Positions 17,523-35,202 are shown, numbered from the stretch's first letter. The stretch: DNA of 64,000 bases from Acidimicrobiales bacterium (GCA_039583615.1 JAVKSQ010000003.1:18719-82718); one strand, 5' to 3'. The notes: a model not told the origin generated them from the sequence alone. Numbers and translations: made by a program.

Positions 17523-17587
17523 CCACCTTGCCATGCTATGACGCCAGCCCTCCCGGCCGACCAGGCGGTGGCGAGGTACCATCAGGC

Positions 17588-18890: not shown

Positions 18891-18965
18891 GAGGTTGGCT
18901 CCTTCTCATCGTGTCGGCTGTTGGCCTGAAGCTAGCCGCTGGAGGGCGCCAGCGCCGCTGGGGCG

Positions 18966-19302: not shown

Positions 19303-19373
19303 GGGCTGGGCAGTCTAGAGCACCCAGCGGACACCACCGTTCCTCGGGAGCAGCCCAGACGGGCCACCGCTGC

Positions 19374-19393
19374 CCCTCGGAGCAGTCCGAGGG
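19374..19393. promoter_or_regulatory. Perfect 7-bp stem / 6-nt loop hairpin carrying one GGAGCAG-core repeat
   Basis: ccctcgg-agcagt-ccgaggg. It lies in the divergent region between the small ORF/pdtaR unit and pstB. Related cores occur at 19347, 19446 and 19589. Function unknown. Confidence 0.35.
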
Positions 19394-19615
19394 ACAGGCA
19401 TTGCCCCGCCGGGGCAGTGTGAGGGCGAAGCGCGGTTGCCGTCGCGGAGCAGTGCGAGTGTTCAGCTCTACAGCACCAGCTGGCCATCTCCCGTTGGCCT
19501 GGCGTTCACCCTGGTTGGTTACCTTGCCGACGTGAGCTCACGCCAGACATCGCCCAGCCCTGCCGCGCCCGGCGCTCCGACGCTCGTCGGAGCAGCCAGC
19601 CGGGAGGCGCCCCCG

Positions 19616-20362: not shown

Positions 20363-20406
20363 GGCCACTGCCGATCCCTGAACGACCTAGCTGAGGAGGT
20401 CTCCAC

Positions 20407-21549
20407 ATGCGATCCACCGGCAAGCTCTCTGTGCTGGCGACCCTCTTGGTCACCGCTGGGATGGCCCTGGCCGCCTGCGGGAGCAAGACATCCAGCTCAA
20501 CGACCACCACCGCCAGCACCGGGGCGGCACCGTCGGCCCCGGGGGCGACCGACCAGCCGCCCTCCGCCACCGTGAGCCTGACCGAGACCGGCAGCACCCT
20601 GCTGTTCCCGCTGTTCTCCGCCTGGGCCCCCGCCTATACCAAGGCCCACCCCAACATCACCATCACTCCGGCCGGCACCGGCTCGGGCGCCGGCATCGCC
20701 GGGGCGACCGCCGGCACCGCCGACATCGGGGCCTCCGACGCCTACCTGTCGCCGGCTCAGCGCCAGACGACTCCCAGCCTGGTCAACATCCCCCTGGCCA
20801 TCTCGGCCCAGCAGATCAACTACAACCTGCCCGGTGGCCCTGGCCACCTCAAGCTCGACGGCAAGGTCCTGGCGGAGATGTACCTGGGCAAGATCACCAC
20901 CTGGAACGACCCCCAGGTGGCCGCCCTCAATCCAGGGGTCAGCCTGCCAAGCCTCAAGGTGGTCCCCGTGCACCGTTCCGACGGCAGCGGCGACACCTTC
21001 TTGTTCAGCTCCTTCCTGTCCAAGTCCGACCCGACCGATTGGACCATCAGCCCCGGTACCACGGTGGCCTTCCCCCCCGTGCCCGGCAACCTGGGCGCCA
21101 ACGGCAACGGCGGCATGGTGACCACCTGCGGGGCCACCAAAGGCTGCGTAGCTTACATCGGTGTGAGCTTCGAGGACAAGGCGACGGCCACCGGCCTGGG
21201 CGAGGCCATGCTGGCCAACCGCTCGGGCAACTACCTGCTGCCGACGGCCGGCGCGGTGAGCGCCGAGGCGGCCAGCTTCGCCAGCCAGACCCCGCCCGAC
21301 GAGGCCATCTCATTGATCTACGGGCCGCCGGCCAACGGCTACCCGATCGTCAACTACGAGTACGCCATCGTCAACACCACCCAGTCCAACGCGGCCAAGG
21401 CCCAGGCCATCCGGGCCTTCTTGGACTGGGCCGTCAGCTCAGCTGACGGGAACAGTGCCACCTTCTTGACCACCGTCCACTTCGTGGCCCTGCCCGCCCG
21501 CGTGGTGAGCCTCTCGGAGGCCCAGATCGCCAGGATCGGCAAGGCATAA
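20407..21549 (+). CDS. pstS: Phosphate-binding protein PstS (lipoprotein)
   Basis: Signal peptide with lipobox LAACGS. GSTLLFPL and TGSGAGI motifs. SD GAGGAGG upstream. Confidence 0.9.
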   Translation: MRSTGKLSVLATLLVTAGMALAACGSKTSSSTTTTASTGAAPSAPGATDQPPSATVSLTETGSTLLFPLFSAWAPAYTKAHPNITITPAGTGSGAGIAGATAGTADIGASDAYLSPAQRQTTPSLVNIPLAISAQQINYNLPGGPGHLKLDGKVLAEMYLGKITTWNDPQVAALNPGVSLPSLKVVPVHRSDGSGDTFLFSSFLSKSDPTDWTISPGTTVAFPPVPGNLGANGNGGMVTTCGATKGCVAYIGVSFEDKATATGLGEAMLANRSGNYLLPTAGAVSAEAASFASQTPPDEAISLIYGPPANGYPIVNYEYAIVNTTQSNAAKAQAIRAFLDWAVSSADGNSATFLTTVHFVALPARVVSLSEAQIARIGKA

Positions 21550-21558
21550 CGACGGCTG

Positions 21559-22623
21559 ATGCCGTCCCTGGCCACCCGAGCGACATCGCCGGATCGCCCG
21601 GCTGCCTCCCCCCCGGCCGGGCGAGCCGGCGATGTCGCTGAGGGGATGCTGCGCCGGATCTCCGGCGCAGCCGCCATCGTGCCTCTGGTGGCCCTGGTGT
21701 TCATCGTGGCCACGCTGGCCTGGAAGGCCTGGCCCGCTGTCCGCTACAACGGGGCGGGCTTCGTCACCAGGGTCGCCTGGAGGGTTGGCGACTTCTATTC
21801 CAACGTCGTCACCACCCACGGGGTGGCCCATCCGCCGGGAGCGCTCTACGGGGCTCTGCCTCTCATCACCGGGACCCTGGAGTCGTCGGCCATAGCCCTG
21901 GTGCTGGCCGTCCCGGTCTCCATCGGTGCCGCCCTGGCCGTCACCGAGAAGCTGCCGGCCTCGCTGTCCCAGGGTGTCGGCTTCTTCCTCGAGGTGCTGG
22001 CCGGGATCCCGAGCGTGATCTTCGGCCTGTGGGGCATCCTTACCTTCGGGCCATTCCTCTCCCGGGACATCAGCCCGCTGATCGCCAGGCACGCACCGAA
22101 CGTACCAGTGCTCAGCTTCTTCAGAGGGCCCACCGGGTCCGGCCAGGGGCTGCTCACCGCCGGCGTGGTGCTGGCGATAATGATCGTTCCCATAGTGGCC
22201 GCCACCACCAGGGACCTGCTGCGCCAGGTGCCGGTCCTGCCCAAGGAAGGGGCGGAGGCCCTGGGCATGTCGGAGTGGGAGATGACTCGCCGGGTCACCT
22301 TGCCATGGGTGCGGGCGGGCATCATCGGCGCCTCGGTGCTGGGCCTGGCCCGGGCCCTGGGCGAGACCATCGCGGTGGCCATGGTGTCGGGGGCCGCGTT
22401 GGGGGCCAACGCCCACAACGCCTATTCGACCTTCACCACCATCGCCGCCACCATCGTCTCCCAGCTGGACTCGGCCCTCTCCGACGCCTCGGGCTTCGCG
22501 GTTCGGACCCTGGCCGAGGCGGCCCTGGTGCTGGTGGTCATCACCCTGCTCACCAACGTGGCCGGGCGCCTGCTGGTGCGCCGGGTGGCCACCGCGGCCC
22601 TGCCTGTCGGCCGGGGCATCTGA
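21559..22623 (+). CDS. pstC: Phosphate ABC transporter permease PstC
   Basis: Multi-TM protein with the EAA-type loop [24 protein letters not shown]. Position directly after pstS. Confidence 0.88.
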
Positions 22624-22624
22624 G

Positions 22625-23548
22625 ATGGCCGAGCTGGCTTGGCCGAGGGCGGGCGGGCTGGCCGGCATGGAGCAGCCACCCCTTCATGCCGGACCGTCGC
22701 TGCGACGCCGGATCAGCAACGTCGCCTTCTGGTCGGGATGTGCCCTGGCCCTGGTCCTGGTGATCGCCCCCGCCGTCTCCGTCGTCGGAGGGGTGGTGGC
22801 CCGAGCCGTGCCCCACTGGCACTGGAGCGTGCTCACCACCCTTGGCGTGGGCCTGGGCGGAGGCCTGGAGAACGAGATCGTGGGCACCTTCGTCCTGGTC
22901 GTCGGGGTTGCTCTGCTGGCTGGCGCGGTGGGCATCCTGTCGGGGATCTACCTGGCCGAGCTCTGCCAAGAGGGCCGGGGCGGCGTGCTGCGAGGGGCCT
23001 CGGAGGTGCTGGCCGGCATCCCGTCCATCGTGCTGGGCTACGTCGGCTACGTCGCCTTCGTGGTGGCCTTCGGCTGGGGCTTCTCCCTGGGCGCGGCCCT
23101 GGTGGTCCTGTCGGTCATGGTCATCCCCTACATCGCCAAGACCACCGAGGTGGCGCTACGTCAGGTGCCCAGCTCTTACCGGGAGGGCGCCGAGGCGCTG
23201 GGAATGTCCACCACCTACACGCTGCGCCGCATCACCCTGCGGGCGGCCCTGCCAGGGATCGCCACCGGCATGATCGTGGCCCTGGCCATCGCCTTGGGCG
23301 AGACGGCTCCCCTGTTGTACACAGCCAACACCAGCCAGGCCCTGCCCCATCTAGCGGTGACCCACTCACCGATCAGCTACCTCACCTATCCGGTGTGGAC
23401 CTTCTACAACCAGCCCAGCGCCTCGGCCCAGGACCTGGCCTTCGACGCCGCCCTCCTGCTGGTCGTGCTGGTGGTGGCGCTGATCGTGATCGCCCGGGTG
23501 GTGGTTGCCTTCACCCAGCGCAACTCCGAGGCCGCCTCCGCCCGCTGA
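22625..23548 (+). CDS. pstA: Phosphate ABC transporter permease PstA
   Basis: Multi-TM protein with the loop [31 protein letters not shown]. Starts 2 nt after the pstC stop. Confidence 0.88.
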   Translation: MAELAWPRAGGLAGMEQPPLHAGPSLRRRISNVAFWSGCALALVLVIAPAVSVVGGVVARAVPHWHWSVLTTLGVGLGGGLENEIVGTFVLVVGVALLAGAVGILSGIYLAELCQEGRGGVLRGASEVLAGIPSIVLGYVGYVAFVVAFGWGFSLGAALVVLSVMVIPYIAKTTEVALRQVPSSYREGAEALGMSTTYTLRRITLRAALPGIATGMIVALAIALGETAPLLYTANTSQALPHLAVTHSPISYLTYPVWTFYNQPSASAQDLAFDAALLLVVLVVALIVIARVVVAFTQRNSEAASAR

Positions 23549-23579: not shown

Positions 23580-24707
23580 TCAGGCTGATCGACCCATGAG
23601 GACAGCCGCCTCACGGTGCAGACGACCGAAGTTGTAGTAGGCGGCGCAGGCTCCCTCGGAGGAGACCATGCAGGTGCCGATCGGAGTCTCGGGGGTGCAG
23701 GCGGTGCCGAAGACCTTGCACTCCCAGGGCTTGATGACACCCTTGAGCACCTCCCCGCACTGGCAGGCCTTGGGGTCGGCCACCCGGACACCGGGCACCT
23801 CGTAGATCAGCTCGGCATCCCACTCGGCGAACTCGGGCCGCAGCTTGAGGGCGCTCTGGGAGATGAAGCCCAGGCCCCGCCACTCGAAGTGCGGTCGCAG
23901 CTCGAAGACCTCGGCCAAGATGGCCAGGGCGCGGGGATTGCCCTCGTCCCGGACGATGCGGGTGTACTGGTTCTCGACCTCGCAACGGTCCTGGCGGATC
24001 TGGTCGAGGAGCATGGCAATGGCGGCCAGGATGTCCAGCGGCTCGAAGCCGGCGGTGACGAGGGGCTTGTGGTACACCTCGGGGACGAAGCGGTAGGGGT
24101 AGTTGCCGACCACCGTCGACACGTGGCCTGGCCCGAGGAAGCCCTCCAGGCGCAGGTCGGGGGACTCGAGGATGGCCTTGATGGGCGGCACGATGGTCAC
24201 GTGGTTGCAAAAGACGCTGAAGTTGGTGACGCCGTCGGCCCTGGCCTTGAGCAGGGTCACCGCCGTGGACGGGGCAGTGGTCTCGAACCCGACCGCGAAG
24301 AACACCACCTTGCGGTCGGGGTTCTCCATGGCGATGCGCAGCGCGTCGAGCGGTGAGTAGACGAAGCGGACGTCAGCCCCCCGGGCCTTGGCTTCCAGGA
24401 GGTTGCCCTTACCACCGGGCACCCGCATCATGTCCCCGAAGGAGGTGAAGATGACTCCGGGCGTCTCCGCCACCGCGATGGCGTCGTCGACCCGGCCCAT
24501 GGGGATGACGCAGACCGGGCAACCGGGCCCGTGCACCAGCTCGACGTTGGCCGGCAGCACGTGCTCGATGCCGTGGCGGTAGATGGTATGGGTATGGCCC
24601 CCACAGACCTCCATGAACTTGAACTCGTCGTCCCGGGCCAGATCGCGGATGCGCGCCACCAAGGCGCGGGCGGCCGATGGGTCACGGTACTCATCGACAA
24701 ACTTCAT
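23580..24707 (-). CDS. hypD: [NiFe]-hydrogenase maturation factor HypD
   Basis: MKFVDEYRDP, EVCGGHTHTI, GPGCPVCV, and the C-terminal Fe-S CxxH motifs. SD GGGAGAAG. Confidence 0.93.
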   Translation of the reverse strand: MKFVDEYRDPSAARALVARIRDLARDDEFKFMEVCGGHTHTIYRHGIEHVLPANVELVHGPGCPVCVIPMGRVDDAIAVAETPGVIFTSFGDMMRVPGGKGNLLEAKARGADVRFVYSPLDALRIAMENPDRKVVFFAVGFETTAPSTAVTLLKARADGVTNFSVFCNHVTIVPPIKAILESPDLRLEGFLGPGHVSTVVGNYPYRFVPEVYHKPLVTAGFEPLDILAAIAMLLDQIRQDRCEVENQYTRIVRDEGNPRALAILAEVFELRPHFEWRGLGFISQSALKLRPEFAEWDAELIYEVPGVRVADPKACQCGEVLKGVIKPWECKVFGTACTPETPIGTCMVSSEGACAAYYNFGRLHREAAVLMGRSA

Positions 24708-24815: not shown

Positions 24816-25085
24816 TCAGATCCGCGACTCCATCACCGCGTCTATCTCGTCGGTGTAGGCCTTACCCATGAGCTGGAGCCCCTCCAGGGCTCGCCTGGCC
24901 TCCTCCTCGTCGATCTTGGACATGGCGAAGCCGACATGGATCAGCACCCAGTCACCGAGCTCCAGCCGCTCGTCCTCCAGCAGGCCGATGTTGATGGTGC
25001 GCCGGACCCCGGCCACCTCCACCTTGGCCAGGTGCTGGTTGGCGTCCACGAACTCGGCCACCTGGCCGGGGATACCAAGACACAT
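24816..25085 (-). CDS. hypC: [NiFe]-hydrogenase maturation chaperone HypC
   Basis: 89 aa starting MCLGIPGQV, with the essential N-terminal Cys2. GDWVLIHVGFA. SD GAGAGGAG. Confidence 0.92.
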   Translation of the reverse strand: MCLGIPGQVAEFVDANQHLAKVEVAGVRRTINIGLLEDERLELGDWVLIHVGFAMSKIDEEEARRALEGLQLMGKAYTDEIDAVMESRI

Positions 25086-25132: not shown

Positions 25133-27523
25133 CTAGCGCTCATGACCCGGGCTCAGAGCACAATCCTGACAATCTTGCGGCGCCAGACCGTGGGCGGCGA
25201 TGGCTGCCTGGCCGACGCTGATGCCGCCGTCGTTGGGCGGCACCTCCTGGTGGACGAGCACGTCGAGGCCGTGGGCTCGCAGGCCGCTCTCGATCAGCAT
25301 GCTCAGCCTGGCGTTCTGGAAGACTCCCCCCGACAGGGCGACGGTGTCCAACCGGCGCGTCCCGGCCAGCTCGACCGCTGCTTCCACCGCCCCCTGACCC
25401 AGGCCCTGGTGGAACCCGGCAGCGACCTCGGCGGCCGGTCTCCCGCTGTCCAGGTCGGCCACCACGGCGGCCACCAGCGGCCTCGGATCGAGCACCAGGC
25501 GTCCGTCGGTCCAGGACCGCCCCACCGGATAGGCAGGTGCCCGCCGGCAGGGCACCGAGGAGGCCAAGGCCTCCAGCTCGATGGCGGCCTGGCCCTCGTA
25601 GGTCACCACCGAGCGCACTCCCACCAGGGCGGCAACCGCATCGAAGAGCCGGCCGACGCTGGTGGTAACCGGCCCGCTGGGTGCCTCCAGGAGGCCCAGC
25701 ACGTCGCCAGCCCGCTTGTCCAGGGCCCCGCCGAGGCGCACCGCCTCAGCCGCGCCCAGGCTGGCGTGAGCCCATGACATGGCCATCCGCCAGGGCTGGC
25801 GAATGGCGGCCGCTCCTCCCGGCAGGGGTACCGGCACCAGGCTCCCCACCCGGGTGAATCCCTCCAGATCGGCCACCAGCCACTCGCCGCCCCAAAGAGT
25901 GCCGTCGGTGCCCATCCCCAGGCCGTCGAAGGCCAGGCCGAGGACGGCCTCGGTGCGGCCGTGCTCGGCCAGGCAGGAGGCGATGTGGGCGTGATGGTGC
26001 TGGACGGGCCAGGTCGGCAGGTCCAGGTCGAGGGCCAGCTTGGTGGAGAGGTACTCGGGGTGCAGGTCATGGGCCACCACCTCGGGAGCGACCCCGTAGA
26101 GATGGCAGAGGTGGTCGATGGCCTGCAGGAAGGCTCGGTAGTTGGCCAGGTGCTCCAGGTCGCCGATGTGGTGGCTGGCCACCAGGGTGCGAGCCTTGGC
26201 CACGGCTACGGTCGACTTGAGCTCGGCCCCCACCGCCAGCACCTGGCGGCGGGCCGGGGCCGGCAGCGCCAGGGGCTCTGGGGCGAAGCCGCGAGAGCGC
26301 CGCAGCACCTGGCGGCGGCCGGCCGGAGTGGCCTCGGGCTGGGATGGAGGCCTCACCCGTAGCACCGAGTCGTCGCAGCGGATGTGTATGGGCCGGTCAT
26401 GGGTAAGGAAGCCGTCCACCAGCGCAGCCAGGCGGGCGACCGCGTCCTCGTCGGTGTGGGCGATGGGATCGTCGGAGAGGTTCCCGCTGGTCATCACCAG
26501 GGGCCGCCCGACCGCCTGGGTCAGCAGGTGGTGCAACGGCGTGTAGGCCAGGATCAGGCCCAGCTCCGGCAGGCCGGGGGCGACCCCGGGCGCCAGGAGC
26601 CCGCCCCCTCCGGGCAGGCCCCCTCCGCCGTGGACGCCGTCTGCCTTGGGGACCAGGACGACCGGTCGCCGCATGGACACCAGAGCAGCCTCCGACACCG
26701 GGTCCATCAGGCACAGGCGGCGGGCTTCGTTCACGTCGGACACCATCACCGCGAAGGGCTTGTCGTCCCGGGCCTTGCGTCGGCGCAGCTCGGCCACCGC
26801 ATCGGCGTCAGTGGCGTCGGTGGCCAGGTGGAACCCGCCGATCCCCTTGACGGCCACGATGGCGCCCTCTCGCAGGGCGGCGGCGGCGATGTCCATGGCC
26901 TCGGGCCCCACCGCCTGCGATCGGCCCTCCCGGTCCAGCCAGGCCAGGCGGGGGCCGCAGACCGGGCAGGCATTGGGCTGGGCATGGAAGCGGCGATCAG
27001 CTGGGTCGTCGTACTCCGCCTGGCAGGCCGGGCACATGGTGAACGCCGCCATGGTCGTGGCCGGCCGGTCGTAGGGCACCGAGCGGACGATGGTGTACCG
27101 GGGCCCGCAGTTGGTGCAGTTGGTGAACGGGTAGCGGTACCGGCGGTCGGCCGGGTCGTCGACCTCGGCCAGGCAGGCGGCGCAGGTGGCGGTGTCCACG
27201 CTCACCGGTGCGGCCGGCGCCCCCTCCTCGGAGCTGTGCTCGATGACGAAGCCACCATCGCCTCCGATCGGTGCGATGGCGGTGGAGTCGACGGCCACCA
27301 CCCGCGCCAGCGGCGGAGCCTCGTCGACCAGCAGGCGGCACAGAGCGCCCACCCGGTCAGTGGCTCCCTGCACCTCTACCAGGACGCCGGAGCTGTCGTT
27401 GCGGACGAACCCGGTCAAGCCCAGAGCCACCGCGTGCCGGTAGACGAAGGGGCGGAAGCCCACCCCCTGGACCGTCCCGGTCACCCTCAGGCGCCGGCGC
27501 TGGGGAGCCGGTGGCGCCGGCAC
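25133..27523 (-). CDS. hypF: Carbamoyltransferase HypF
   Basis: Acylphosphatase domain (RLRVTGTVQGVGFRPFVYR). Two zinc-finger CxxC pairs (CAACLAEV..., YPFTNCTNCGPRYT, CPACQAEY, NACPVCGPR). YrdC-like and Kae1-like domains. Start is uncertain: GTG at 27523, or 27580 as in the track. Confidence 0.9.
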   Translation of the reverse strand: MPAPPAPQRRRLRVTGTVQGVGFRPFVYRHAVALGLTGFVRNDSSGVLVEVQGATDRVGALCRLLVDEAPPLARVVAVDSTAIAPIGGDGGFVIEHSSEEGAPAAPVSVDTATCAACLAEVDDPADRRYRYPFTNCTNCGPRYTIVRSVPYDRPATTMAAFTMCPACQAEYDDPADRRFHAQPNACPVCGPRLAWLDREGRSQAVGPEAMDIAAAALREGAIVAVKGIGGFHLATDATDADAVAELRRRKARDDKPFAVMVSDVNEARRLCLMDPVSEAALVSMRRPVVLVPKADGVHGGGGLPGGGGLLAPGVAPGLPELGLILAYTPLHHLLTQAVGRPLVMTSGNLSDDPIAHTDEDAVARLAALVDGFLTHDRPIHIRCDDSVLRVRPPSQPEATPAGRRQVLRRSRGFAPEPLALPAPARRQVLAVGAELKSTVAVAKARTLVASHHIGDLEHLANYRAFLQAIDHLCHLYGVAPEVVAHDLHPEYLSTKLALDLDLPTWPVQHHHAHIASCLAEHGRTEAVLGLAFDGLGMGTDGTLWGGEWLVADLEGFTRVGSLVPVPLPGGAAAIRQPWRMAMSWAHASLGAAEAVRLGGALDKRAGDVLGLLEAPSGPVTTSVGRLFDAVAALVGVRSVVTYEGQAAIELEALASSVPCRRAPAYPVGRSWTDGRLVLDPRPLVAAVVADLDSGRPAAEVAAGFHQGLGQGAVEAAVELAGTRRLDTVALSGGVFQNARLSMLIESGLRAHGLDVLVHQEVPPNDGGISVGQAAIAAHGLAPQDCQDCALSPGHER

Positions 27524-27536
27524 CCCCTCGACGTCC

Positions 27537-28739
27537 TCAGCAGATGCGCGGGAGTGGGTCACCGACCAGCATGTCGACAATGCGCGTGCCGCCGAAGGTG
27601 GTCAGCAACACGACGATCCCCTCAGGTTCCGACCGGACGTCGCCGATGCGAGCCGCCTGGCCGCCGTAGGGATGGGACCGCAGGGCCGCAACCGCCGCGT
27701 CGGCCTCGTCGGGGGCCACGACGGCCAGGAGCTTGCCCTCGTTGGCCACGTAGAGGGGGTCGATTCCCAGCAGGTCGCAAGCGCCAGCCACGGCTGGGTC
27801 GACCGGCAGCAGGGACTCGTCGAGGACAACCGCCAGGTTGGTCTCCCGGACGAGCTCGTTGCAGACGGTACCCACTCCCCCACGGGTCGGGTCGCGCAGC
27901 CACCGGGTGGACGGAGCCGCCTCGAACAACACGTCGACCAAGCCGGCCAGAGGGGCGGTGTCCGAGCGGATGTCGGCCTCCAGGGCCAGCTCGCCACGGG
28001 CCAGCATGACTGCCATGCCATGGTCGGCGATGGTCCCCGACACGACGACCACGTCGCCGGGGGACACCCGCCCGGTTCCCAGCACCCGCTCGGGGGGGAT
28101 CAGCCCGATGCCAGCAGTGTTGACGTAGAGGCCGTCGGCCGCCCCACGGTCCACCACCTTGGTGTCCCCGGTCACGATCTGCACGCCGGCGACCCGGGCT
28201 GCCTCGGCCATGTCGGCCACCACGGCCCGCAGGTCGGCCACCGGGTAACCCTCCTCGAGCACGAACCCGGCCGAGAGCCAAGCCGGCTTGGCCCCCATCA
28301 TGGCCAGGTCGTTGACCGTGCCATTGATGGCCAGATCGCCGATCGACCCACCCGGGAAGCGCAGGGGCTTGACCACGAAGGAGTCGGTGCTGAAGGCCAG
28401 GCGCTCCCCCGACGCCAAGGTGACACAGGCGCCGTCGGCCATGGTGGCCAGGGTGTCGTTGGCGAAGGCATCCAGGAAGACCGCGTCGATCAGGGCCGCC
28501 GACGACTTGCCGCCCGCCCCATGGGCCAGGGTGATGACCTCGTCTCGAAGACGCGGCCGGCGCTTGCGGAAGGCTTCGATCCGGTCGAGGACAGCCGCCT
28601 CTCGGCCGCTGGCACGCTCGGGGCTGGCCACCTTCTCGGCCTGCCTGACCCCGCCCGCCCCATTGCCGGACTGGGCGGGGCCGGACTGGGCGGGGCCGGC
28701 CTGGCGCTGACCAGCGCCAGGGGCTGAGGGCTCGGTCAC
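27537..28739 (-). CDS. hypE: Hydrogenase maturation protein HypE (with about 65-aa low-complexity N-terminal extension if the GTG at 28739 is used)
   Basis: PurM-like core (ITLAHGAGGKSS) and the diagnostic C-terminus GDPLPRIC. The GTG at 28737-28739 overlaps the upstream SIS gene stop (GTGA). Confidence 0.9.
   Translation of the reverse strand: MTEPSAPGAGQRQAGPAQSGPAQSGNGAGGVRQAEKVASPERASGREAAVLDRIEAFRKRRPRLRDEVITLAHGAGGKSSAALIDAVFLDAFANDTLATMADGACVTLASGERLAFSTDSFVVKPLRFPGGSIGDLAINGTVNDLAMMGAKPAWLSAGFVLEEGYPVADLRAVVADMAEAARVAGVQIVTGDTKVVDRGAADGLYVNTAGIGLIPPERVLGTGRVSPGDVVVVSGTIADHGMAVMLARGELALEADIRSDTAPLAGLVDVLFEAAPSTRWLRDPTRGGVGTVCNELVRETNLAVVLDESLLPVDPAVAGACDLLGIDPLYVANEGKLLAVVAPDEADAAVAALRSHPYGGQAARIGDVRSEPEGIVVLLTTFGGTRIVDMLVGDPLPRIC
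28666..28695. repeat. 15-bp tandem duplication (ccggactgggcgggg x2) encoding GPAQS-GPAQS in the hypE N-terminal extension
   Basis: Identical units at 28666-28680 and 28681-28695. Confidence 0.85.
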
Positions 28740-29488
28740 TGGTGGGCGCCGGCCCGGTCGGCGCTGAGGGCGGTCTGGACCTCTGACCAGAGGGCAAAGG
28801 CCAACGCCGCCTGGGACTCCTGGATGCGGTGAACGCTGTCCGAGCGCACCACCAGGCAGTGGTCGAGATCCTCGCAGGCGGCCATCTGACCACCCTCGTA
28901 GCCGGCCAGACCTACCGTGAGCAACCCTCTCCGATGAGCCTCCCCGAAGGCCCGGATGACATTGTTCGAGTTGCCGCTGGTGGAAAGGCCCACCGCCATG
29001 TCACCGGAGCGGGCATGGGCGATCACCTGGCGGGAGAAGACCAGCTCGAACCCGACGTCGTTGCCCAGCGCCGTCACCACCGCCTCGTCGGCCACCAAGG
29101 AGCGGGCCGGCAAGGGACGCGCCGGTCCCGGAGGATGGGTGAACAGGGCAGCCAGGCTGGCCGCGTCGGTGGCGCTGCCGCCGTTGCCGAAGGCGAACAG
29201 TTGGCCTCCGGCAGTGAACCGGTCAGCCATGGCGCGGGCCAAGGCGCCCAGAGCCGGGCGGTGGGCCTCGATGGTCGCGGCCTGCAGCCGTCCGCTGTCG
29301 GTGGCCTTGCCCCGGGCGGAGGCAGCCAAGTCGATCAGGAGCGGCCCGGCGTCATCCTCGTCAGCCTCGATGAAGGGGTAGAGGAAGTCGCTGCCGCTCG
29401 GCATCCGGGTACCCGGTGGCGTACCGACCGTCCCGCCCCGGGTGGGGGCATCCCCCTTGGAATGGCCGTTGTGAGCGGTCGTGCTCAC
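28736..29488 (-). CDS. SIS-domain protein, GmhA (phosphoheptose isomerase)-like
   Basis: FAFGNGGSATDAASLAALF, ALGNDVGFELVFSRQV, GDMAVGLSTSGNSNNVIRAFGEAHRRGLLTVGLAGYEGG, SDSVHRIQESQ. Start is uncertain (GTG 29488, ATG 29404 or ATG 29551). The stop overlaps the hypE start. Confidence 0.8.
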   Translation of the reverse strand: MSTTAHNGHSKGDAPTRGGTVGTPPGTRMPSGSDFLYPFIEADEDDAGPLLIDLAASARGKATDSGRLQAATIEAHRPALGALARAMADRFTAGGQLFAFGNGGSATDAASLAALFTHPPGPARPLPARSLVADEAVVTALGNDVGFELVFSRQVIAHARSGDMAVGLSTSGNSNNVIRAFGEAHRRGLLTVGLAGYEGGQMAACEDLDHCLVVRSDSVHRIQESQAALAFALWSEVQTALSADRAGAHQ

Positions 29489-29507
29489 CGTGGCACCTCG
29501 CTTAGCG

Positions 29508-30257
29508 TCATGTCTGCGCCCCCTCCACCAGCTCGATCGCCGTCCCGGCATGGATCAGTACCAGGTCTCCCAGCGCCACCGGGGCCACCAGGGTGGTGTC
29601 GATGAGCGCCGGCCCGGTGGCTGTGCGCACGGTGGCTTCGGCCGAGCGCCCGATAGCCACCACCTCACCCAGATGACCCTCGTCCGAGCAGGTGACACAG
29701 ACCTCGTCTGTGCAGGAGTCGTCCGCCCGCAGCAGGCCGGGGTGCTCGAAGCAGACATGCACCAGCTCCCACAGCAGGTGGTAGATGAGCACGAAGGAGC
29801 CCACATGGGGCGCCCGCCCCGGGTCCTCGTCCGCCAGCCACAGGACGTGGTCGGCAGCGCCGGCATCGGGCCGAGGGCCGGCCCCGATCCACACCGTCTC
29901 CAAGCCCCAGGCTCGGCCCCGGCGCATGGCCGCCATGACCTGGCGGTCATCGGCGTTGGCCACTGCCACCAGGATGTCGCCCTGCCTGGCCAGGGTACGC
30001 AGCGCCGAGACCGGATCAGGATCGGTGACGGCCACCGCAGGCAGGGCTCGCTTGCCCATGATCACCGGGTGGACGAACTCCACTGCCACGTGATGGGCAT
30101 GCTGGGGCCAAGCCGGGGCGGTGCACCACATGGTGGCCCCTGTCCAGAACCGCCGGGCCAGGGCCAAGCAGGTCGTGGCCAGGTCGTCGGCCAAGCCTCC
30201 GAGTACCGCCTGAGGAGCCTGGGGGGTCTGGATCGCCCTACCTGCCTCCGTCGCCAT
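29508..30257 (-). CDS. Fusion protein: degenerate SIS-like domain plus C-terminal HypC/HupF-like domain
   Basis: ATG at 30257 with SD GGGGAGG. The N-terminal ~185 aa is collinear with the neighbouring SIS protein, but the phosphate-binding loops are replaced (GATMWCTAPAW for FGNGGS, ILVAVANADD for LSTSGNS). The C-terminal ~65 aa CVTCSDEGHLGEVVAIG...VALGDLVLIHAGTAIELV resembles the HypC OB-fold (compare GDWVLIHVGFA in hypC). Confidence 0.6.
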   Translation of the reverse strand: MATEAGRAIQTPQAPQAVLGGLADDLATTCLALARRFWTGATMWCTAPAWPQHAHHVAVEFVHPVIMGKRALPAVAVTDPDPVSALRTLARQGDILVAVANADDRQVMAAMRRGRAWGLETVWIGAGPRPDAGAADHVLWLADEDPGRAPHVGSFVLIYHLLWELVHVCFEHPGLLRADDSCTDEVCVTCSDEGHLGEVVAIGRSAEATVRTATGPALIDTTLVAPVALGDLVLIHAGTAIELVEGAQT

Positions 30258-30527: not shown

Positions 30528-30625
30528 GACCCAGGCCCAGGGTAGTGCACGGCTAAGCTGGCCAGGCCGGGTGCCTCCCAGGTCCACCGCGCAGGAGTGC
30601 CGATGCCTGCTCGGTCCAGGGCTCT

Positions 30626-30663
30626 CAAACCTGGGTTTCTTTCAAAACCGGGACTTTGAAACC
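30626..30663 (+). promoter_or_regulatory. AT-rich element with three (T)CAAACC-like repeats and inverted arms upstream of fabD; candidate operator
   Basis: caaacctgggtttctttcaaaaccgggactttgaaacc. AAACC occurs at 30627, 30645 and 30659. Inverted pairs are AAACC/GGTTT and TTTCAAA/TTTGAAA. This is the most AT-rich patch I noticed in the window, about 85 bp upstream of the fabD start. Confidence 0.35.
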
Positions 30664-30744
30664 TTTGCCGCCCAGCCTGGGTCTGAGCCCCATCGAGTCG
30701 TGCCGCAGTGGTGGCGATCGATGCCTAGTCGACAAGGAGAGCAT

Positions 30745-32001
30745 GTGGCCGTCTATACCTTTCCGGGACAGGGATCCCAGCGTCCGGGCATGGGCAGGGC
30801 GTGGGTCGATCATCCCTCCTGGGAGCTGGTCGGCGACGCCTCGGAGGCAGCCGGCCGGGACATCGGTGCCCTGCTGCTGCACGCCGACGCCGAGGAGCTG
30901 ACCGCCACCCGCAACGCCCAGCTGGCCACCTTCACGCTGGGCCTGGTCGTGCTGGACGCAATCGAGCGCCTGGGCCTGGAGCCCTCTGCCTTTGCCGGCC
31001 ACAGCCTGGGCGAGTACACGGCTCTGGTGGCAGCCGGCGCTCTGGCCTTCCAAGATGCGGTGCGCCTGGTTGCCGAGCGGGGCGAGGCCATGCAAGGTGC
31101 GGCCGAGGAGTCAGAGGGCACCATGGCGGCCCTGCTCGGCATCGACGCGGCCGGCGCCGACGCCGCCTGCCGGAGAGCTGAGGGCGAGGTCTGGGTGGCC
31201 AACGACAACGCCCCCGCCCAGGTGGTCATTGCCGGCGAGACGAAGGCTGTGGCCCGGGCGAGCGACCTGGCCCGGGGAATGGGCGCCCGCAAGGTGCTCC
31301 CGATGCCGGTGGGCGGGGCGTTCCACACACCGCTCATGGCGCCAGCCCGTGACCGGCTGCGCAAGACCCTGGGCGAGGTGACCTTTCGACCGCTGGAGGT
31401 CGCAGTGACGGCCAACGTGGACGCCAAGGCCCACGTGGACCCGGCCGAGTGGCCGGGATTGCTCTCCTCCCAGCTGTGCAGCCCGGTGCGCTGGCGGGAG
31501 ATCCTCCTTTCTCTGGTCGCCGAGGGGCCGACCACCCTCGTCGAGGTGGGACCGGGCGGTGTGCTGACCGGCCTGGCGCGCCGGACCGTTCCGACCTGCC
31601 AGGCGGTGGCCGTGGCCACGCCCGACGACCTCGATGACCTGGTGGGGGTGCTGGCCGGTGACAGCCCTCTGCACGCCTACGCCACGTCCCACCACGGCGA
31701 GCACCTATACGTCTCCGAGCGGGTGGTCCTCAGCCCGGCCGCTGGCATCTTCGAGCCCGATCCCGCCTTGGTGGTGCCCACCCACGATGGTGCGCCAGGG
31801 GCGGAGGTGGCGGTCGGTGACCTCATCGGAACGGTGGCGGGAACCGGTGAGCCGGTGGAGGTCCGCTCCGCCTTCGCCGGACCGCTCGTCGGGCTGCTGG
31901 TAATGCCCGGAGAGCGGTTGACCGCCGGCCAGCCGGTTGCCTGGCTGCGGGCGCCGGCCGAGCCTGGGCCAGGCGGAGCCCCGGCTGCTCCCCCCGCGTG
32001 A
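30745..32001 (+). CDS. fabD: Malonyl-CoA:ACP transacylase (FabD) with an extra ~110-aa C-terminal biotinyl/lipoyl-like domain
   Basis: GTG at 30745 preceded by AAGGAGA. VAVYTFPGQGSQRPGMG, GHSLGEYTALVAAG and GAFHTPLM are FabD motifs, and that domain ends near aa 300. The ORF then continues in frame: VVLSPAAGIF...GAEVAVGDLIGTVAGTGEPVEVRSAFAGPLVGLLVMPGERLTAGQPVAWL. Confidence 0.85.
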   Translation: MAVYTFPGQGSQRPGMGRAWVDHPSWELVGDASEAAGRDIGALLLHADAEELTATRNAQLATFTLGLVVLDAIERLGLEPSAFAGHSLGEYTALVAAGALAFQDAVRLVAERGEAMQGAAEESEGTMAALLGIDAAGADAACRRAEGEVWVANDNAPAQVVIAGETKAVARASDLARGMGARKVLPMPVGGAFHTPLMAPARDRLRKTLGEVTFRPLEVAVTANVDAKAHVDPAEWPGLLSSQLCSPVRWREILLSLVAEGPTTLVEVGPGGVLTGLARRTVPTCQAVAVATPDDLDDLVGVLAGDSPLHAYATSHHGEHLYVSERVVLSPAAGIFEPDPALVVPTHDGAPGAEVAVGDLIGTVAGTGEPVEVRSAFAGPLVGLLVMPGERLTAGQPVAWLRAPAEPGPGGAPAAPPA

Positions 32002-32972
32002 GCGGCCGGGGGCGGCACCGCCCACCCGTGAGCCGCGGGTCCGTTACCCGGGGTGCCGCGGTCAGCGGATGGGGGTGGGCGCTGCCGGACAAGGTTGTCA
32101 CCAACGCCGACCTGGCCAGTCGCCTGGACACCAGCGACGAGTGGATCGTCGAGCGGACGGGGATCCGGGAGCGCCGGGTCGGGGGCACCACGGCCGAGCT
32201 GGCCGAGACGGCAGCCCGGCGGGCGCTCACCCGGGCAGGCCTGGAGGCAGGCGACGTAGGCCTGTTGATCCTGGCCACCACGACCCCCGACCAGGCCATG
32301 CCGGCCACTGCGGTCGACGTCGCCTGCCGGCTGGGGGTGCAGGCTCCCGCCTTCGACCTCAACGCTGCCTGCTCGGGCTTCGCCTATGCCCTGGTGACCG
32401 CCCACGCCATGATCGGCACCGGCGTCGAGCGGGCCCTGGTGATCGGAGCCGAGGTCCTCTCCCGCATCACCGACCAGGACGACCGGTCCACCGTCGTGCT
32501 GTTCGGCGATGGAGCGGGCGCCGTCGTGCTCGAGGTCATCGCCGGCGACGACCGCGTCCTGGCCTGGGACCAGGGGTGCGACGGCTCGGCCGGTCACATC
32601 CTGTTCTGTCAGCATGGCGGCACAATGCAGATGCAGGGGCGAGAGGTGTACCGGCGGGCGGTGAGGACCACCCTGGAGTCGATCGTGGCCGTCCTGGAGA
32701 GAGCCAAGCTGGACCCCGAGGACATCGACCTGTTCGTGCCCCACGGAGCCAACCTGCGGATCATCGAGGGCATCAACCAGCGCCTGGGAATACCCATGGA
32801 GCGAACCGCGGTGTTGTTGGACCGCACCGGCAACACCTCGGCGGCCTCGATACCCATGGCCCTGGCCGATGCGGCCGACAGCGGGCGCCTGGTGGCGGGC
32901 GACCATGTCCTGCTGTCGGGCTTCGGCGCCGGGATGACATGGTCCAGCGTGGTCCTGCGGTGGGGCCGGTGA
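31998..32972 (+). CDS. fabH: 3-oxoacyl-ACP synthase III (FabH)
   Basis: LPDKVVTNADLASRLDTSDEWIVERTGIRERR, active-site NAACSGFAYAL, and GNTSAASIPMAL. The GTG overlaps the fabD stop (GTGA). An internal GTG at 32028 is also possible. Confidence 0.9.
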   Translation: MSGRGRHRPPVSRGSVTRGAAVSGWGWALPDKVVTNADLASRLDTSDEWIVERTGIRERRVGGTTAELAETAARRALTRAGLEAGDVGLLILATTTPDQAMPATAVDVACRLGVQAPAFDLNAACSGFAYALVTAHAMIGTGVERALVIGAEVLSRITDQDDRSTVVLFGDGAGAVVLEVIAGDDRVLAWDQGCDGSAGHILFCQHGGTMQMQGREVYRRAVRTTLESIVAVLERAKLDPEDIDLFVPHGANLRIIEGINQRLGIPMERTAVLLDRTGNTSAASIPMALADAADSGRLVAGDHVLLSGFGAGMTWSSVVLRWGR

Positions 32973-33700
32973 GCGAGGCGACAAGCGAGCCGAGCGGCCG
33001 GGTGGCCCTGGTGACCGGCGGCTCCCGGGGGATCGGCCTGGCCTGCGCCCGGAGGCTCCGTGCGGGCGGCAACCGGGTGGCCGTCACCTGGAGGACGTCG
33101 CCCCCGCCCTCAGCCGACCTGCTGGCGCTTCGCTGCGACGTGACCTCGGCTGGCGACGTGGAGGCGCTCTTCGACCAGATCGAGCAGCGCTGGGGCAGCG
33201 TCGAGATCCTGGTGGCCAACGCCGGGGTGACAAGAGACGCCCTGGTCCTGCGCATGGACGAGGAGGCGTGGGCCGAGGTGCTGGGCACCAACCTGACCGG
33301 CGCCTGGCGGGTTGCCAGGAGGGCGGCCCGGGGCATGGTCCGGGCCCACTGGGGGCGCGTGGTCTTCATCTCCTCGGTGGTTGCCTATTCCGGCCAGCCC
33401 GGTCAAGCCAACTACGCGGCGGCCAAGGCCGGCATGGTGGGCTTGGCCCGCTCCCTCGCCCGCGAGCTGGCCTCCCGCCAGGTGACGGTCAACGTGGTGG
33501 CCCCTGGCGCGGTGGACACCGACATGCTGGGCGCGTTGTCCAAGCAGCAGCTCGACCAGATGACCGGGATGATCCCGCTCGGCCGAGTGGCCGACCCCGA
33601 CGAGGTGGCGGCCGTGGTGGACTTCTTGGTCTCCCCCCTGGCCTCCTATGTGACGGGCGCCGTCGTTCCCGTCGACGGCGGACTGGGAATGGGTCATTAG
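32969..33700 (+). CDS. fabG: 3-oxoacyl-ACP reductase (FabG, SDR family)
   Basis: RVALVTGGSRGIGLA, NAG, SSVVAYSGQPGQANYAAAKAG (the YxxxK motif), VNVVAPG. The GTG overlaps the fabH stop (GTGA). It lies within the long track ORF 31937..33700. Confidence 0.88.
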   Translation: MSEATSEPSGRVALVTGGSRGIGLACARRLRAGGNRVAVTWRTSPPPSADLLALRCDVTSAGDVEALFDQIEQRWGSVEILVANAGVTRDALVLRMDEEAWAEVLGTNLTGAWRVARRAARGMVRAHWGRVVFISSVVAYSGQPGQANYAAAKAGMVGLARSLARELASRQVTVNVVAPGAVDTDMLGALSKQQLDQMTGMIPLGRVADPDEVAAVVDFLVSPLASYVTGAVVPVDGGLGMGH

Positions 33701-33745
33701 CACTAACGTCGTGAACCGAGCTACCCACGAAAGGAACAGGCCCCC

Positions 33746-33985
33746 GTGGACCAGGAAGCTGCCTTCGAGAAGTTCAAGACCACGACCGTGGAGGTGCTCC
33801 AGGTCAAGCCCGAGCAGGTCACCCCGGACGCCCGGTTCGGCCAGGACCTCGACGCCGACAGCCTTGACCTGGTCGAGCTGATCATGGCCCTGGAGGAGTC
33901 CTTTGACGTCACCGTCGACGAGTCGGAGCTGGAGGGAGTGGAGACCGTCGAGCAGGCCTTCAACGTCATCTCGGCCAAGCTCTGA
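33746..33985 (+). CDS. acpP: Acyl carrier protein
   Basis: 79 aa with the phosphopantetheine site LDADSLDLVELIMALEE. Confidence 0.93.
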   Translation: MDQEAAFEKFKTTTVEVLQVKPEQVTPDARFGQDLDADSLDLVELIMALEESFDVTVDESELEGVETVEQAFNVISAKL

Positions 33986-35202
33986 TGCTCCTGGTGGGAG
34001 CCAGCCCGGGCGGACCGGACCCGGCCGCCGGGCCCCGGCGGGTGGCAATCACCGGACTGGGAGTGGTGGCCTGCTGCGGCGTCGGCCAGGACGCGTTCTG
34101 GGACGGACTGTGCGGGCCGCCGCCCAGCGGTGAGCGCCGGGTCCACGACTTCGACCCAACCATGTTCTTCGGCCCCAAGGAGGTGCGTCAGGTCGACCGC
34201 TTTGCCCAGTTCGCGGTGGCCGCCGCCTGCCAGGCCCTGGACGACGCGGGCGACTTGAGGGCGGACCCCGACCGAGCCGGGGTCATCATCGCCACCGGGG
34301 TAGGAGGCGTCCAGACCTGGGAGGACCAGGTTGCCGTCTTCTTGGAGAGGGGACAACGGCGGGTCTCTCCCCGGCTCATTCCCATGATGATGCCCAACGC
34401 CGGGGCCGCCACCGTGTCCATGCGGTTGGGCTGGCGGGGTCCGTGCGAGACGACCGGAACGGCCTGCGCCGCCGGCACCCACGCCATCGGCAACGCGGCC
34501 CGCCTGATCGCCAGCGGACGCTGCCAGGTCATGCTGGCGGGAGGCTCGGAGGCCTCCATGACACCGGTCGCCATCGCCGGTTTCGCCAACATGACTGCCT
34601 TGTCGACCTCGGGTGTCTCCAGGCCCTTCGACCTGGAGCGGGACGGCTTCGTGGTAGCCGAAGGGTCGGCCGTGCTGCTGCTCGAGGACCTGGAGCGAGC
34701 CCAGGAGCGCGGCACCAGGATCTACGCCGAGCTGACGGGCGCGGCCAGCACCGCCGACGCCCACCACATCACCGCCCCATCGCCGGGCGGCGCCGGGGCC
34801 GCCGCCTGCATGGAGTTGGCCCTGTTCGACGCCGGGCTCACCCCTGGCGAGATAGGCCATGTCAACGCCCACGGGACCTCCACCCCCCCCAACGATGCGG
34901 CCGAGGCGGAGGCCATCACCAAGGTGTTCGGCTCCCCCGGGCCGCCCGTGACATCGATCAAGGGGGTGACGGGCCACGCCCTGGGCGCAGCCGGTGCCAT
35001 CGAGGCAGTGGCCTCGGTCCTAAGCCTGCAGAGGTGCCTGGTCCCGCCCACAGCCAACTTCTCCACGCCCGACCCGGACATGAGGATCGACCTGGTGGTG
35101 GGAGCGCCTCGCCCGCTGGAGCCGGCGCCGGTGCTCTCGAACTCCTTTGGCTTCGGTGGCCACAACGGGTGCCTGGTGATCACGCCAGTGGACGTCCCCT
35201 GA
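33985..35202 (+). CDS. fabF: 3-oxoacyl-ACP synthase II (KAS II, FabF)
   Basis: RRVAITGLGVV, active-site GTACAAGTHAIG, HHITAP, NAHGTSTPPND, SIKGVTGHALGAAG, NSFGFGGHN. The ATG shares one base with the acpP stop (TGATG). Confidence 0.92.
   Translation: MLLVGASPGGPDPAAGPRRVAITGLGVVACCGVGQDAFWDGLCGPPPSGERRVHDFDPTMFFGPKEVRQVDRFAQFAVAAACQALDDAGDLRADPDRAGVIIATGVGGVQTWEDQVAVFLERGQRRVSPRLIPMMMPNAGAATVSMRLGWRGPCETTGTACAAGTHAIGNAARLIASGRCQVMLAGGSEASMTPVAIAGFANMTALSTSGVSRPFDLERDGFVVAEGSAVLLLEDLERAQERGTRIYAELTGAASTADAHHITAPSPGGAGAAACMELALFDAGLTPGEIGHVNAHGTSTPPNDAAEAEAITKVFGSPGPPVTSIKGVTGHALGAAGAIEAVASVLSLQRCLVPPTANFSTPDPDMRIDLVVGAPRPLEPAPVLSNSFGFGGHNGCLVITPVDVP

Follow-up and report, generated by a model that had tools for sequence, protein, structure and literature searches.

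We have analysed a 64-kb stretch of DNA from an Acidimicrobiales bacterium (GCA_039583615.1, JAVKSQ010000003.1:18719-82718; ~72% G+C), hereafter the window, and in it a hydrogenase-maturation (hyp) operon that is headed by two SIS genes. Six tightly packed genes run along the minus strand from 30257 down to 23580 in the order fusion-SIS-B-hypE-hypF-hypC-hypD, as read from open reading frames (ORFs), translations and Pfam/NCBIfam profiles (Table 1). The first encodes a protein in which a SIS domain (SIS-A) is joined through a Cys-rich linker to a HypC-like domain, and the second encodes a separate SIS protein (SIS-B); we refer to them together as the split-SIS module. A first-pass annotation of this DNA had read the pair as a dead SIS domain beside a live one. 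Its two ORFs and both of its domain calls stand, whereas its labels "degenerate" (for SIS-A) and "canonical" (for SIS-B) do not: each protein has lost a different half of the active site of the isomerase GmhA, and the other half is strictly conserved. The observation as such is real and lies far beyond chance.

Table 1. Features of the hyp operon and of the two SIS genes at its head (positions counted from the first nucleotide of the window).
Feature	Coordinates	Strand	Description	Evidence
Fusion gene	29508..30257	-	249 aa; SIS-A domain, Cys-rich linker and HypC-like barrel	ORF, translation, homologues, AlphaFold
SIS-A domain, residues ~15-176	29730..30215	-	Predicted GmhA-type fold without phosphate loops and without TAxGND loop	
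Motif H53-A-H-H56-V-A-V-E60-F-V-H63-P64	30066..30101	-	81/81 conserved	
Motif Y159-H160-LL-W163-E164-LV-H167-V-C169-F-E171-H172	29742..29783	-	Last SIS-A helix; 80-81/81 conserved	
Cys-rich linker C182-x4-C187-V-T189-C190-S-D192-E193	29679..29714	-	At the position of the N-terminal Cys2 arm of HypC	
HypC-like five-stranded barrel, residues 195-245	29523..29675	-	Invariant H236-A-G	
SIS-B gene	28736..29488	-	250 aa counted from GTG 29488	SIS_2, E 5e-16
SIS-B phosphate loop GNGGS	29174..29188	-	Followed by DAASLAALF where GmhA has DAQHIAGEF (H64->S, E68->L)	
SIS-B phosphate loop STSGNS	28967..28984	-	S123-T-S-G126 81/81	
hypE	27537..28739	-	C-terminal PRIC	TIGR02124, 409 bits; translation
hypF	25133..27580	-	Carbamoyltransferase	TIGR00143, 740 bits; Pfam domains
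Canonical hypC	24816..25085	-	N-terminal MCLGIPG	PF01455, 89.6 bits; translation
hypD	23580..24707	-		PF01924, 516 bits; TIGR00075, 498 bits

Detecting the SIS domain of the fusion needed profiles and structure, because Pfam and NCBIfam scans gave no SIS match in its N-terminal half and pairwise BLASTP against the SIS-B neighbour was marginal (E 0.012); the gmhA equivalog models of NCBIfam likewise gave zero match to the fusion protein. The N-terminal 175 residues align with the SIS-B family over 152 columns (hhalign, 89%, E 2e-6), in agreement with the collinearity that had been proposed for the two genes, and the SIS-A family profile matches solved GmhA and DiaA structures (E 5e-4). In the AlphaFold model of the fusion (pLDDT 84, pTM 0.78), an alpha/beta domain (residues 15-176, with pLDDT >90 across most of 21-140) and a five-stranded barrel (195-245) are connected by a low-confidence loop (187-191), and the 30 best PDB matches of the model in Foldseek are GmhA and DiaA (E 2.5e-9, TM 0.69). 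From these profiles and this model, SIS-A is predicted to have a GmhA-type SIS fold to which a HypC-like barrel is attached. Among the Pfam matches that the first-pass annotation had suggested looking for, those of the fusion to the HypC family and of SIS-B to SIS_2 were obtained; a Pfam SIS match in the fusion was not. The replaced phosphate loops that it had pointed out are seen in our alignments as well. TAPAW takes the place of GNGGS and ANADD that of STSGNS (against B. pseudomallei GmhA, GNGGS becomes APAWP and STSG becomes ANAD), and the substrate loop TAxGND, ~15 residues, is deleted. The phosphate/sugar loops GNGGS, TAxGND and STSG are all present in SIS-B and gone from SIS-A.

What SIS-A has kept is conserved without exception or nearly so. 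We used two sets of fusion homologues, 36 at 58-90% identity and 81 at 54-90% identity. In the smaller set, 60 of the 249 positions are invariant, and the strongest conservation falls within the SIS half; in the larger set, H53, H56, E60, H63, P64, H137, H160, W163, E164, H167, E171, H172, C187, C190, D192 and H236 are present in 81/81 sequences and C169 in 80/81. Alignment to B. pseudomallei GmhA (DAQH64IAGE68F -> HAHH56VAVE60F) places H56 and E60 on the zinc/catalytic residues H64 and E68, and H160 falls at the position of GmhA H183 (hhalign and a six-way alignment). H63 is an extra invariant His, and with it the pattern H-x3-E-x2-H occurs twice, once per helix (H56-E60-H63 and H160-E164-H167), which, from sequence, looks like an enlarged metal site. 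Because of this strict conservation across homologues, SIS-A is specialised rather than decaying, and the term "degenerate" is not borne out for a domain whose His/Glu set is intact in all 81 sequences.

The second protein presents the converse picture. SIS-B matches GmhA structures in the PDB (E 1.5e-27), with DiaA also among the matches, and it keeps the sugar-phosphate motifs on which its first description was based. A canonical GmhA, however, it is not: it scores 92-115 bits on gmhA equivalog models whose cut-offs are 209-320 (TIGR00441, 114.7 vs 209.45; NF010546, 115.2 vs 276), and 79.2 bits against a cut-off of 352 on the DiaA model NF008138. In 81 SIS-B orthologues from related loci (GmhA numbering), GNGGS, D61, D88, T93, N97, D98, S123-T-S-G126, Q175 and E176 are invariant or nearly so. 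In contrast, position 64 is Thr, Gly or Ser (His 0/81), position 68 is Leu in 76/81 (Glu 0/81), and position 183 is Tyr or Phe in 66/81 and His in 9/81. Three of the four zinc/catalytic residues are therefore missing from SIS-B, and together with the sub-cut-off scores this rules out, as far as sequence can tell, a canonical GmhA identity. Judged from the sequences, SIS-B keeps a predicted ketose-phosphate pocket and has lost the metal/catalytic residues, which are those that SIS-A keeps. The start of SIS-B is uncertain (ATG 29551, GTG 29488 or ATG 29404), and conservation begins at DFLYPF. This (F)LYPF motif lies 5' of the SIS-B domain (window ~29380-29325) and recurs in the single SIS protein of C. 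necator (L081:11755-12444) and at the junctions of the tandem (L082:9959-11137) and triple fusions described below; the aligned GmhA structures have no counterpart.

The pattern acquires meaning from the architecture of GmhA, a tetramer in which each active site is formed where three chains meet (PMC5705639). Its zinc ligands H64, E68, Q175 and H183 are completely conserved in orthologues and needed for activity, and the enzyme shows half-of-sites reactivity, as one site can be ablated with no activity lost (PMC5705639). In a model of M. tuberculosis GmhA based on 2X3Y, one monomer provides Glu66 and another provides Gln173 and the zinc (PMC7705670). Neither polypeptide of our pair has the full H64/E68/Q175/H183 set: SIS-B has only Q175, and SIS-A has the equivalents of H64, E68 and H183. 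Because GmhA sites are built across subunits, SIS-A and SIS-B look like the halves of one heteromeric site, and since half of the sites suffice in GmhA itself, a reduction to half their number would have been a small evolutionary step. By sequence and by analogy with GmhA, the two proteins are probably an obligate heteromer, and this is a better reading than a live enzyme with a dead partner.

Natural variants of the arrangement support a SIS-A:SIS-B heteromer, as far as sequences can. In the AH (1h) cluster of C. necator H16 pHG1, a single 229-aa SIS protein (WP_011153996.1), encoded between hypC and hypD, carries both residue sets, that is, GNGGS, TAVGND and STSGNS together with AHIAVEFLHPV and RVQETHVAIYHILWDLVH. 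On Thermus thermophilus pTHTHE1601, a SIS-A+SIS-B tandem of 392 aa lies 3' of hypE, its first half being SIS-A-type (GKGPY, AQHVSVEFVHPVIVGKRALPA, YHTLWETVHVFFEH) and its second half SIS-B-type. The same tandem occurs on a Sulfobacillus acidophilus plasmid and in five further clusters that are distinct at 50% identity, and triple fusions of SIS-A, HypC-like domain and SIS-B were found in P0126, P0148 and P0252. A tandem model (pTM 0.82) suggests a defined packing of the two halves, and it superposes end to end on the double-SIS isomerase domain of GlmS (~416 columns, TM 0.54-0.60). Apparent stand-alone SIS-A and odd long forms (P0145, P0153, P0201, P0255, P0261) were discarded, as they look like frameshifted or truncated calls; P0166 and P0194 gave zero Pfam matches, and P0211 only a weak AIRS match. 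In Sulfobacillus the tandem is a 336-aa ORF in an unannotated gap between hypE and a glutaredoxin gene (L083:8881-9891), and since it ends earlier than the 392-aa Thermus protein it may reflect a frameshift, a pseudogene or a sequencing error. A glutaredoxin-like gene, named "Uxx-star family glutaredoxin-like (seleno)protein", stands directly 3' of the tandem SIS gene and 5' of hypF in both Thermus pTHTHE1601 and Sulfobacillus (L082:11130-11390, L083:10045-10272). By tblastn over the window and 86 loci, such genes were found only in Thermus and Sulfobacillus, and none in the actinobacterial loci or the window.

The C-terminal part of the fusion had been likened to HypC, with its Cys internal in a CxxC rather than at the N-terminus, and both points were confirmed. 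Residues 197-245 match Pfam HupF_HypC PF01455 just below its cut-off (E 2.4e-6, 28.0 bits vs 28.5), TIGR00074 is matched at 24.5 bits against a cut-off of 48 (E 1.8e-5), the C-terminal 74 residues align with the HypC family (hhalign, 97%, E 1e-10), and the family profile reaches the HypC structures 3vyr/2z1c at E 0.04. Five barrel strands are present in the AlphaFold model of this part, and H236 aligns (hhalign) with the His that HypC conserves in its LIHVG stretch, at the position of E. coli H51. The canonical N-terminus M-C-(L/I/V)-(G/A)-(L/I/V)-P, whose Cys2 becomes exposed once Met is removed and with which the separate hypC of the window agrees, is not found here; C187 and C190 are internal, in C-V-T-C-S-D-E-G. 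In the hhalign register E193 pairs with HypC Pro6, which therefore leaves C190 one position away from Cys2, with C187 lying three residues before C190. Across the 81 fusions, C187, C190 and D192 are found in 81/81, T189 in 80/81 and C182 in 59/81, and the low pLDDT at 187-191 fits a flexible arm. Thermus and Sulfobacillus encode a free-standing HypC-like protein of 75-77 aa that starts MELE..C-x6-C-x-T-C-G-D, between a canonical MCLAIPG hypC and hypD. From its sequence, we regard the domain as a distinct HypC paralogue with an internal C-x-T-C.

The module is widespread and strictly linked to hyp genes. A word-indexed search returned >5670 homologues of the fusion, under the names "HypC/HybG/HupF family chaperone", "HupF", "hypothetical" and "phosphoheptose isomerase"; a HMMER search of 1.84 billion representatives yielded 175 clusters at E <= 1e-30, or 677 when the threshold was E <= 1e-10, and in a collection with one genome per species at least 576 genome stretches encode a relative. 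Taxa include Mycobacterium, Mycolicibacterium, Pseudonocardia, Sphaerisporangium, Nocardioidaceae, Acidimicrobiales and Ilumatobacteraceae, and the hyp linkage spans Actinomycetota, Deinococcota, Bacillota and Pseudomonadota. In 80 of the 80 loci that we fetched, SIS-B lies directly 3' of the fusion and the pair stands amid hypC/D/E/F, which supports its reading as a conserved Hyp accessory. Most often (41/80) the genes run hypC-hypF | fusion-SIS-hypE-hypC-hypD; hypD directly follows the pair in five loci and hypE in most others, an order that hints at a complex with HypD, and the order fusion-SIS-hypE-hypF of the window is the Acidimicrobiales type. The split-SIS signature (HxxVEFVHPV; YHxLWExxH), with SIS-B adjacent or fused and hypCDEF around it, is thus present in the window, in all 80 loci, in the tandems and in the triple fusions. 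It is with hypC/D/E/F, the Fe(CN)2CO branch of maturation, that the module sits, and not with hypA/B.

The hydrogenases themselves were counted in the 57 loci with at least 8.5 kb of upstream flank. In 41 of them, a large subunit carries TSRICGICGDNH and SFDPCLPCGVH, which we take to be 1h signatures; in the one example checked (L054), it matches HofG 5AA5 at 1077 bits. Six further loci have a PRICGICGGSH large subunit (Huc-type 2a; the L014 protein matches Huc 7UUS at 1096 bits), one has another type, and nine have none within range. The linkage survey that the first-pass annotation had called for therefore shows conservation with hyp genes across genomes, mostly next to 1h or 2a hydrogenases. 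HypX was also sought by tblastn, and no homologue was found in the 64 kb, as had been stated before, or in any of 86 loci up to 10 kb from the pair. Local context gives no basis for a simple argument that the module replaces HypX. In Mycolicibacterium peregrinum, a different [NiFe] large subunit (ARVCGICPVAYQ, DPCISCSAH) is encoded just 3' of the hypD of the module (L053:14384-15434, minus strand), with hypA/hypB upstream, and the split-SIS hyp set may serve more than one hydrogenase class there. In a metagenome-assembled genome (L047:10892-12592), SIS-B and hypE each match in two pieces, which suggests frameshifts, by assembly error or decay.

Within the window the operon stands apart from any hydrogenase. 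No [NiFe] large-subunit motif was found by motif search of the 64 kb, nor were hydrogenase subunit genes, hypA, hypB, hypX or a maturation protease. The operon is flanked by a phosphate ABC transporter (pstSCAB-like, 19319-23548) and by fabD-fabH-acpP-fabF (30571-35202), and in Pfam scans the remaining large ORFs are housekeeping only (polA, rpsA, coaE, trp, his, pyrG, recN-like and others). Close relatives (90% identical) share this isolated arrangement; they have an extra DUF5685 gene 5' of the fusion, which the window does not. GGAGG precedes the ATG of the fusion gene at 30257. The stop of SIS-B overlaps the GTG (28739) of the hypE frame by 4 nt (GTGA), as the first-pass annotation had noted, and the identical overlap is found in the gene calls of the 90%-identical relatives; a later hypE start is possible, as the HypE profile match begins only at residue 69 of the long ORF. 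Scanning the operon for promoters and terminators was uninformative. About 5 kb from the operon, a DtxR/IdeR-type iron-dependent repressor with a C-terminal FeoA-like domain adjoins an ANTAR response regulator (17462-18319, plus strand; 18294-18905, minus strand), and further away a 487-aa ORF (60146-61609, plus strand) combines in one protein a MobA-like nucleotidyltransferase and FdhD/NarQ domains, which have molybdenum-cofactor/formate-dehydrogenase maturation functions.

The gene has been mentioned in the literature mainly by name. Its presence in high-affinity hydrogenase clusters with no assigned role, which the first-pass annotation had brought up, agrees with papers that mention "gmhA" in 1h/2a clusters and give it no function. 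Heptose-1-phosphate adenylyltransferase is a different pathway enzyme from GmhA. A Frankia paper reports "gmhA" as often found in 1h and 2a operons and calls the preceding gene hypothetical (PMC11879354); it describes GmhA as heptose-1-phosphate adenylyltransferase (PMC11879354), an instance of the loose labelling of this hydrogenase-linked gene. In drawings of acidobacterial 1h clusters, gmhA is an unlabelled arrow and "glutaredoxin 3" is also drawn; two "phosphoheptose isomerases" are listed before hypE in M. indicus pranii; M. smegmatis gmhA (MSMEG_2706) shares a microarray appendix table with the hyp genes beside it, and its values fall within their range, a sign of co-expression; and a published survey counted a "SIS domain" cluster in the neighbourhood of [NiFe] hydrogenases. 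The gmhA-like protein is not among the ancillary proteins named in a 2025 review of how the [NiFe] cofactor is assembled, which describes the iron source and the HypD redox steps as unresolved, and hypX is reported to be not always present in high-affinity H2 oxidisers. In the searchable papers (most subscription papers and theses being outside reach), we found no functional study of the fusion, of SIS-B or of the undivided C. necator SIS, and no account of how the residues of the two proteins complement each other, or of the tandem and triple fusions.

Based on these results, we propose that the split-SIS module forms a GmhA-like heteromer, a metalloprotein that binds a sugar phosphate, is tethered to a HypC-like domain and acts at the HypCDE stage of aerobic 1h/2a hydrogenase maturation; to this full statement we give roughly an even chance. 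What the data show are the folds, the complementary residues, the fusions that occur in nature and the strict linkage to hypCDEF and to 1h/2a hydrogenases, whereas the heteromer, its docking on HypD and any chemistry are inferred. A hydrogenase-linked GmhA-like protein with a complete site, similar to that of C. necator, would have been duplicated and the copies would have divided the site between them. SIS-B would have kept the sugar-phosphate pocket (GNGGS, D61, T93/N97/D98, STSG, Q175, E176), and SIS-A the metal/catalytic H56 and E60, plus H160 and further invariant His/Glu. The two would assemble into a GmhA-like hetero-oligomer, most simply A2B2. In it, a nearly complete composite A:B site, to which SIS-A would contribute His/Glu and SIS-B the Gln and the loops, would bind a ketose phosphate, sedoheptulose-7-phosphate or similar, at the metal, while the reciprocal site would be empty of substrate contacts. 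The HypC-like domain, with its CxTC arm at the place of Cys2 and its conserved His, would bind HypD, or the HypCDE complex, in the way that HypC does, and such docking would couple the SIS site to Fe(CN)2CO assembly.

Several of our observations weigh against this proposal. The composite site would still have no His at the H183 position, where most SIS-B sequences have Tyr/Phe, and the equivalent of Q175 is not conserved in SIS-A. The HypC-like domain has no N-terminal Cys2, so that docking on HypD in the manner of HypC is an assumption, and no CxTC HypC-like protein is present in the C. necator cluster, which means that the HypC-like part is not universally required. Finally, the link to a hydrogenase class rests on relatives, because the window has no hydrogenase structural genes. 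An uncharacterised maturation accessory is nonetheless what the sequences support, and delivery of a sugar-phosphate-derived ligand to the Hyp scaffold, the role first suggested for the pair, is compatible with the evidence. A more specific version, in which SIS-A:SIS-B would be an enzyme compatible with oxygen that starts from a ketose phosphate and makes, or delivers, a ligand of the hydrogenase Fe, notably CO, seems to us quite improbable. The chemistry of GmhA goes via a metal-bound enediol, and enediolates bound to a metal can react with O2 and give off CO, nickel acireductone dioxygenase being an example; either the product or iron would then be handed directly to HypD by the tethered HypC-like domain with its CxTC. 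If this were true, there would be two aerobic routes to the CO ligand, that of HypX and this one, the latter used by the high-affinity 1h/2a hydrogenases that consume atmospheric H2.

Other explanations account for part of these data. DiaA and HobA are GmhA folds that lost catalysis and tetramerise to gather DnaA (PMC4697000), and the SIS pair could in the same way be a non-catalytic oligomerisation platform that presents several HypC-like domains to the Hyp complex or to multimeric hydrogenases. DiaA is indeed among the profile and fold matches, and neither protein alone has a complete GmhA site. We nevertheless judge such a scaffold unlikely, as it leaves unexplained the invariant sugar-phosphate contacts and Q175/E176 of SIS-B, the invariant His/Glu ligands of SIS-A and the fully equipped single protein of C. 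necator, and as SIS-B remains far below the DiaA cut-off (79 bits vs 352). The conservation of the doubled H-x3-E-x2-H, E171, H172, C169 (80/81) and the CxTC (T189 80/81) could instead point to a metal or redox chaperone, whose SIS-A His/Glu and CxTC would bind and hand over Fe (Ni, Zn) or exchange thiols and disulfides with HypD under air, SIS-B being a metabolite sensor. The glutaredoxin-like gene after the tandem SIS in Thermus/Sulfobacillus, the "glutaredoxin 3" of acidobacterial 1h clusters, and the iron source and HypD redox steps that the review leaves unresolved would all suit this idea. It is similarly unlikely, since the glutaredoxin-like gene is absent from the actinobacterial loci and the window, C. 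necator has its SIS without any CxTC protein, and the strict retention of Q175/E176 in SIS-B exceeds the needs of a sensor.

The names "phosphoheptose isomerase" and "gmhA" in databases and papers, and the best PDB matches to GmhA, would be explained most directly if the SIS gene were a true GmhA for envelope glycero-manno-heptose that lies beside hyp by chance. This is very hard to credit: SIS-B is below every gmhA equivalog cut-off and has lost H64, E68 and usually H183, no other known heptose-pathway function was recognised among the nearby genes scanned, and the hyp linkage holds across four phyla and extends to physical fusion with the HypC-like domain in some lineages. Least probable of all is a decaying duplicate, in which the SIS half of the fusion would be a drifting pseudo-domain and only the HypC-like part functional. 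The loss of both phosphate loops and of the substrate loop, and the missing Pfam SIS match, could be taken in this sense, but the conservation pattern contradicts it, with invariant columns (60/249 at 58-90% identity) strongest in the SIS half itself and the SIS-A signature kept in Thermus, Sulfobacillus and C. necator; the confident model (pLDDT >90 over most of 21-140) also argues against drift.

The split-SIS module bears on an open question in hydrogenase biosynthesis. Soil bacteria take up H2 from the atmosphere by means of the group 1h (Hhy) and 2a (Huc) hydrogenases, which are also under development as air-stable catalysts. A three-part module so far noted only as "gmhA"/"hypothetical" is tied to hypCDEF in hundreds of aerobic species, and it would bring together a predicted pocket for a sugar phosphate, a conserved set of metal ligands and a HypC-like domain for delivery. 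As M. smegmatis carries the genes, the hypothesis for a missing maturation step is genetically testable. Better hydrogenase yields need, according to a review, a better understanding of maturases, and the module may be needed for heterologous production of 1h/2a hydrogenases. More generally, the pair would illustrate neatly how, in nature, two paralogues can divide between them the inter-subunit active site of an oligomeric enzyme.

As far as we found, the module is widely annotated yet uncharacterised in searchable papers, and its kin are GmhA-like SIS and HypC-like proteins. With GmhA itself (B. pseudomallei 2X3Y/2XBL, E. coli 2I2W), SIS-A and SIS-B share the SIS fold, and the cross-subunit sites of GmhA are the precedent for a divided one. 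Unlike GmhA, SIS-A has the extra invariant H53, H63, E164, H167, E171 and H172, both proteins are below the gmhA cut-offs, and the split-SIS genes belong to hyp operons rather than heptose pathways. The closest relative of the undivided kind, C. necator WP_011153996.1, is of the same hydrogenase-linked SIS clade; it shares VEF(V/L)HPV and YHxLW(E/D)xVH with SIS-A, and the LYPF N-terminus and phosphate loops with SIS-B, and differs in being undivided and having no HypC-like fusion. The isomerase domain of GlmS/GFAT holds two SIS units as a pseudo-dimer in one chain, like the tandem model, but identity is ~10-12%, the chemistry is different (with an amidotransferase partner), and the SIS-A metal-ligand signature is not shared.

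The HypC-like domain has in common with HypC/HybG/HupF/HoxL the small beta-barrel, the conserved His in a (L/V)-(I/V)-H-x-G strand and a place amid hypD/E/F. In contrast to HypC, its C-x-T-C is internal, after a 185-residue domain (or after ~15 residues in the stand-alone form of Thermus/Sulfobacillus), it has no C-terminal helix, and a canonical HypC is encoded additionally. DiaA/HobA are oligomeric adaptors of GmhA fold in which the catalytic Glu is replaced (PMC4697000); DiaA binds DnaA and has no hyp link, whereas in the split-SIS module we propose that the lost residues are supplied by the partner. HypX, the aerobic CO-ligand synthase, is likewise an extra factor for hydrogenases made under air and acts at the Fe-ligand stage, but it has an unrelated fold (formyltransferase and crotonase) and a known chemistry.

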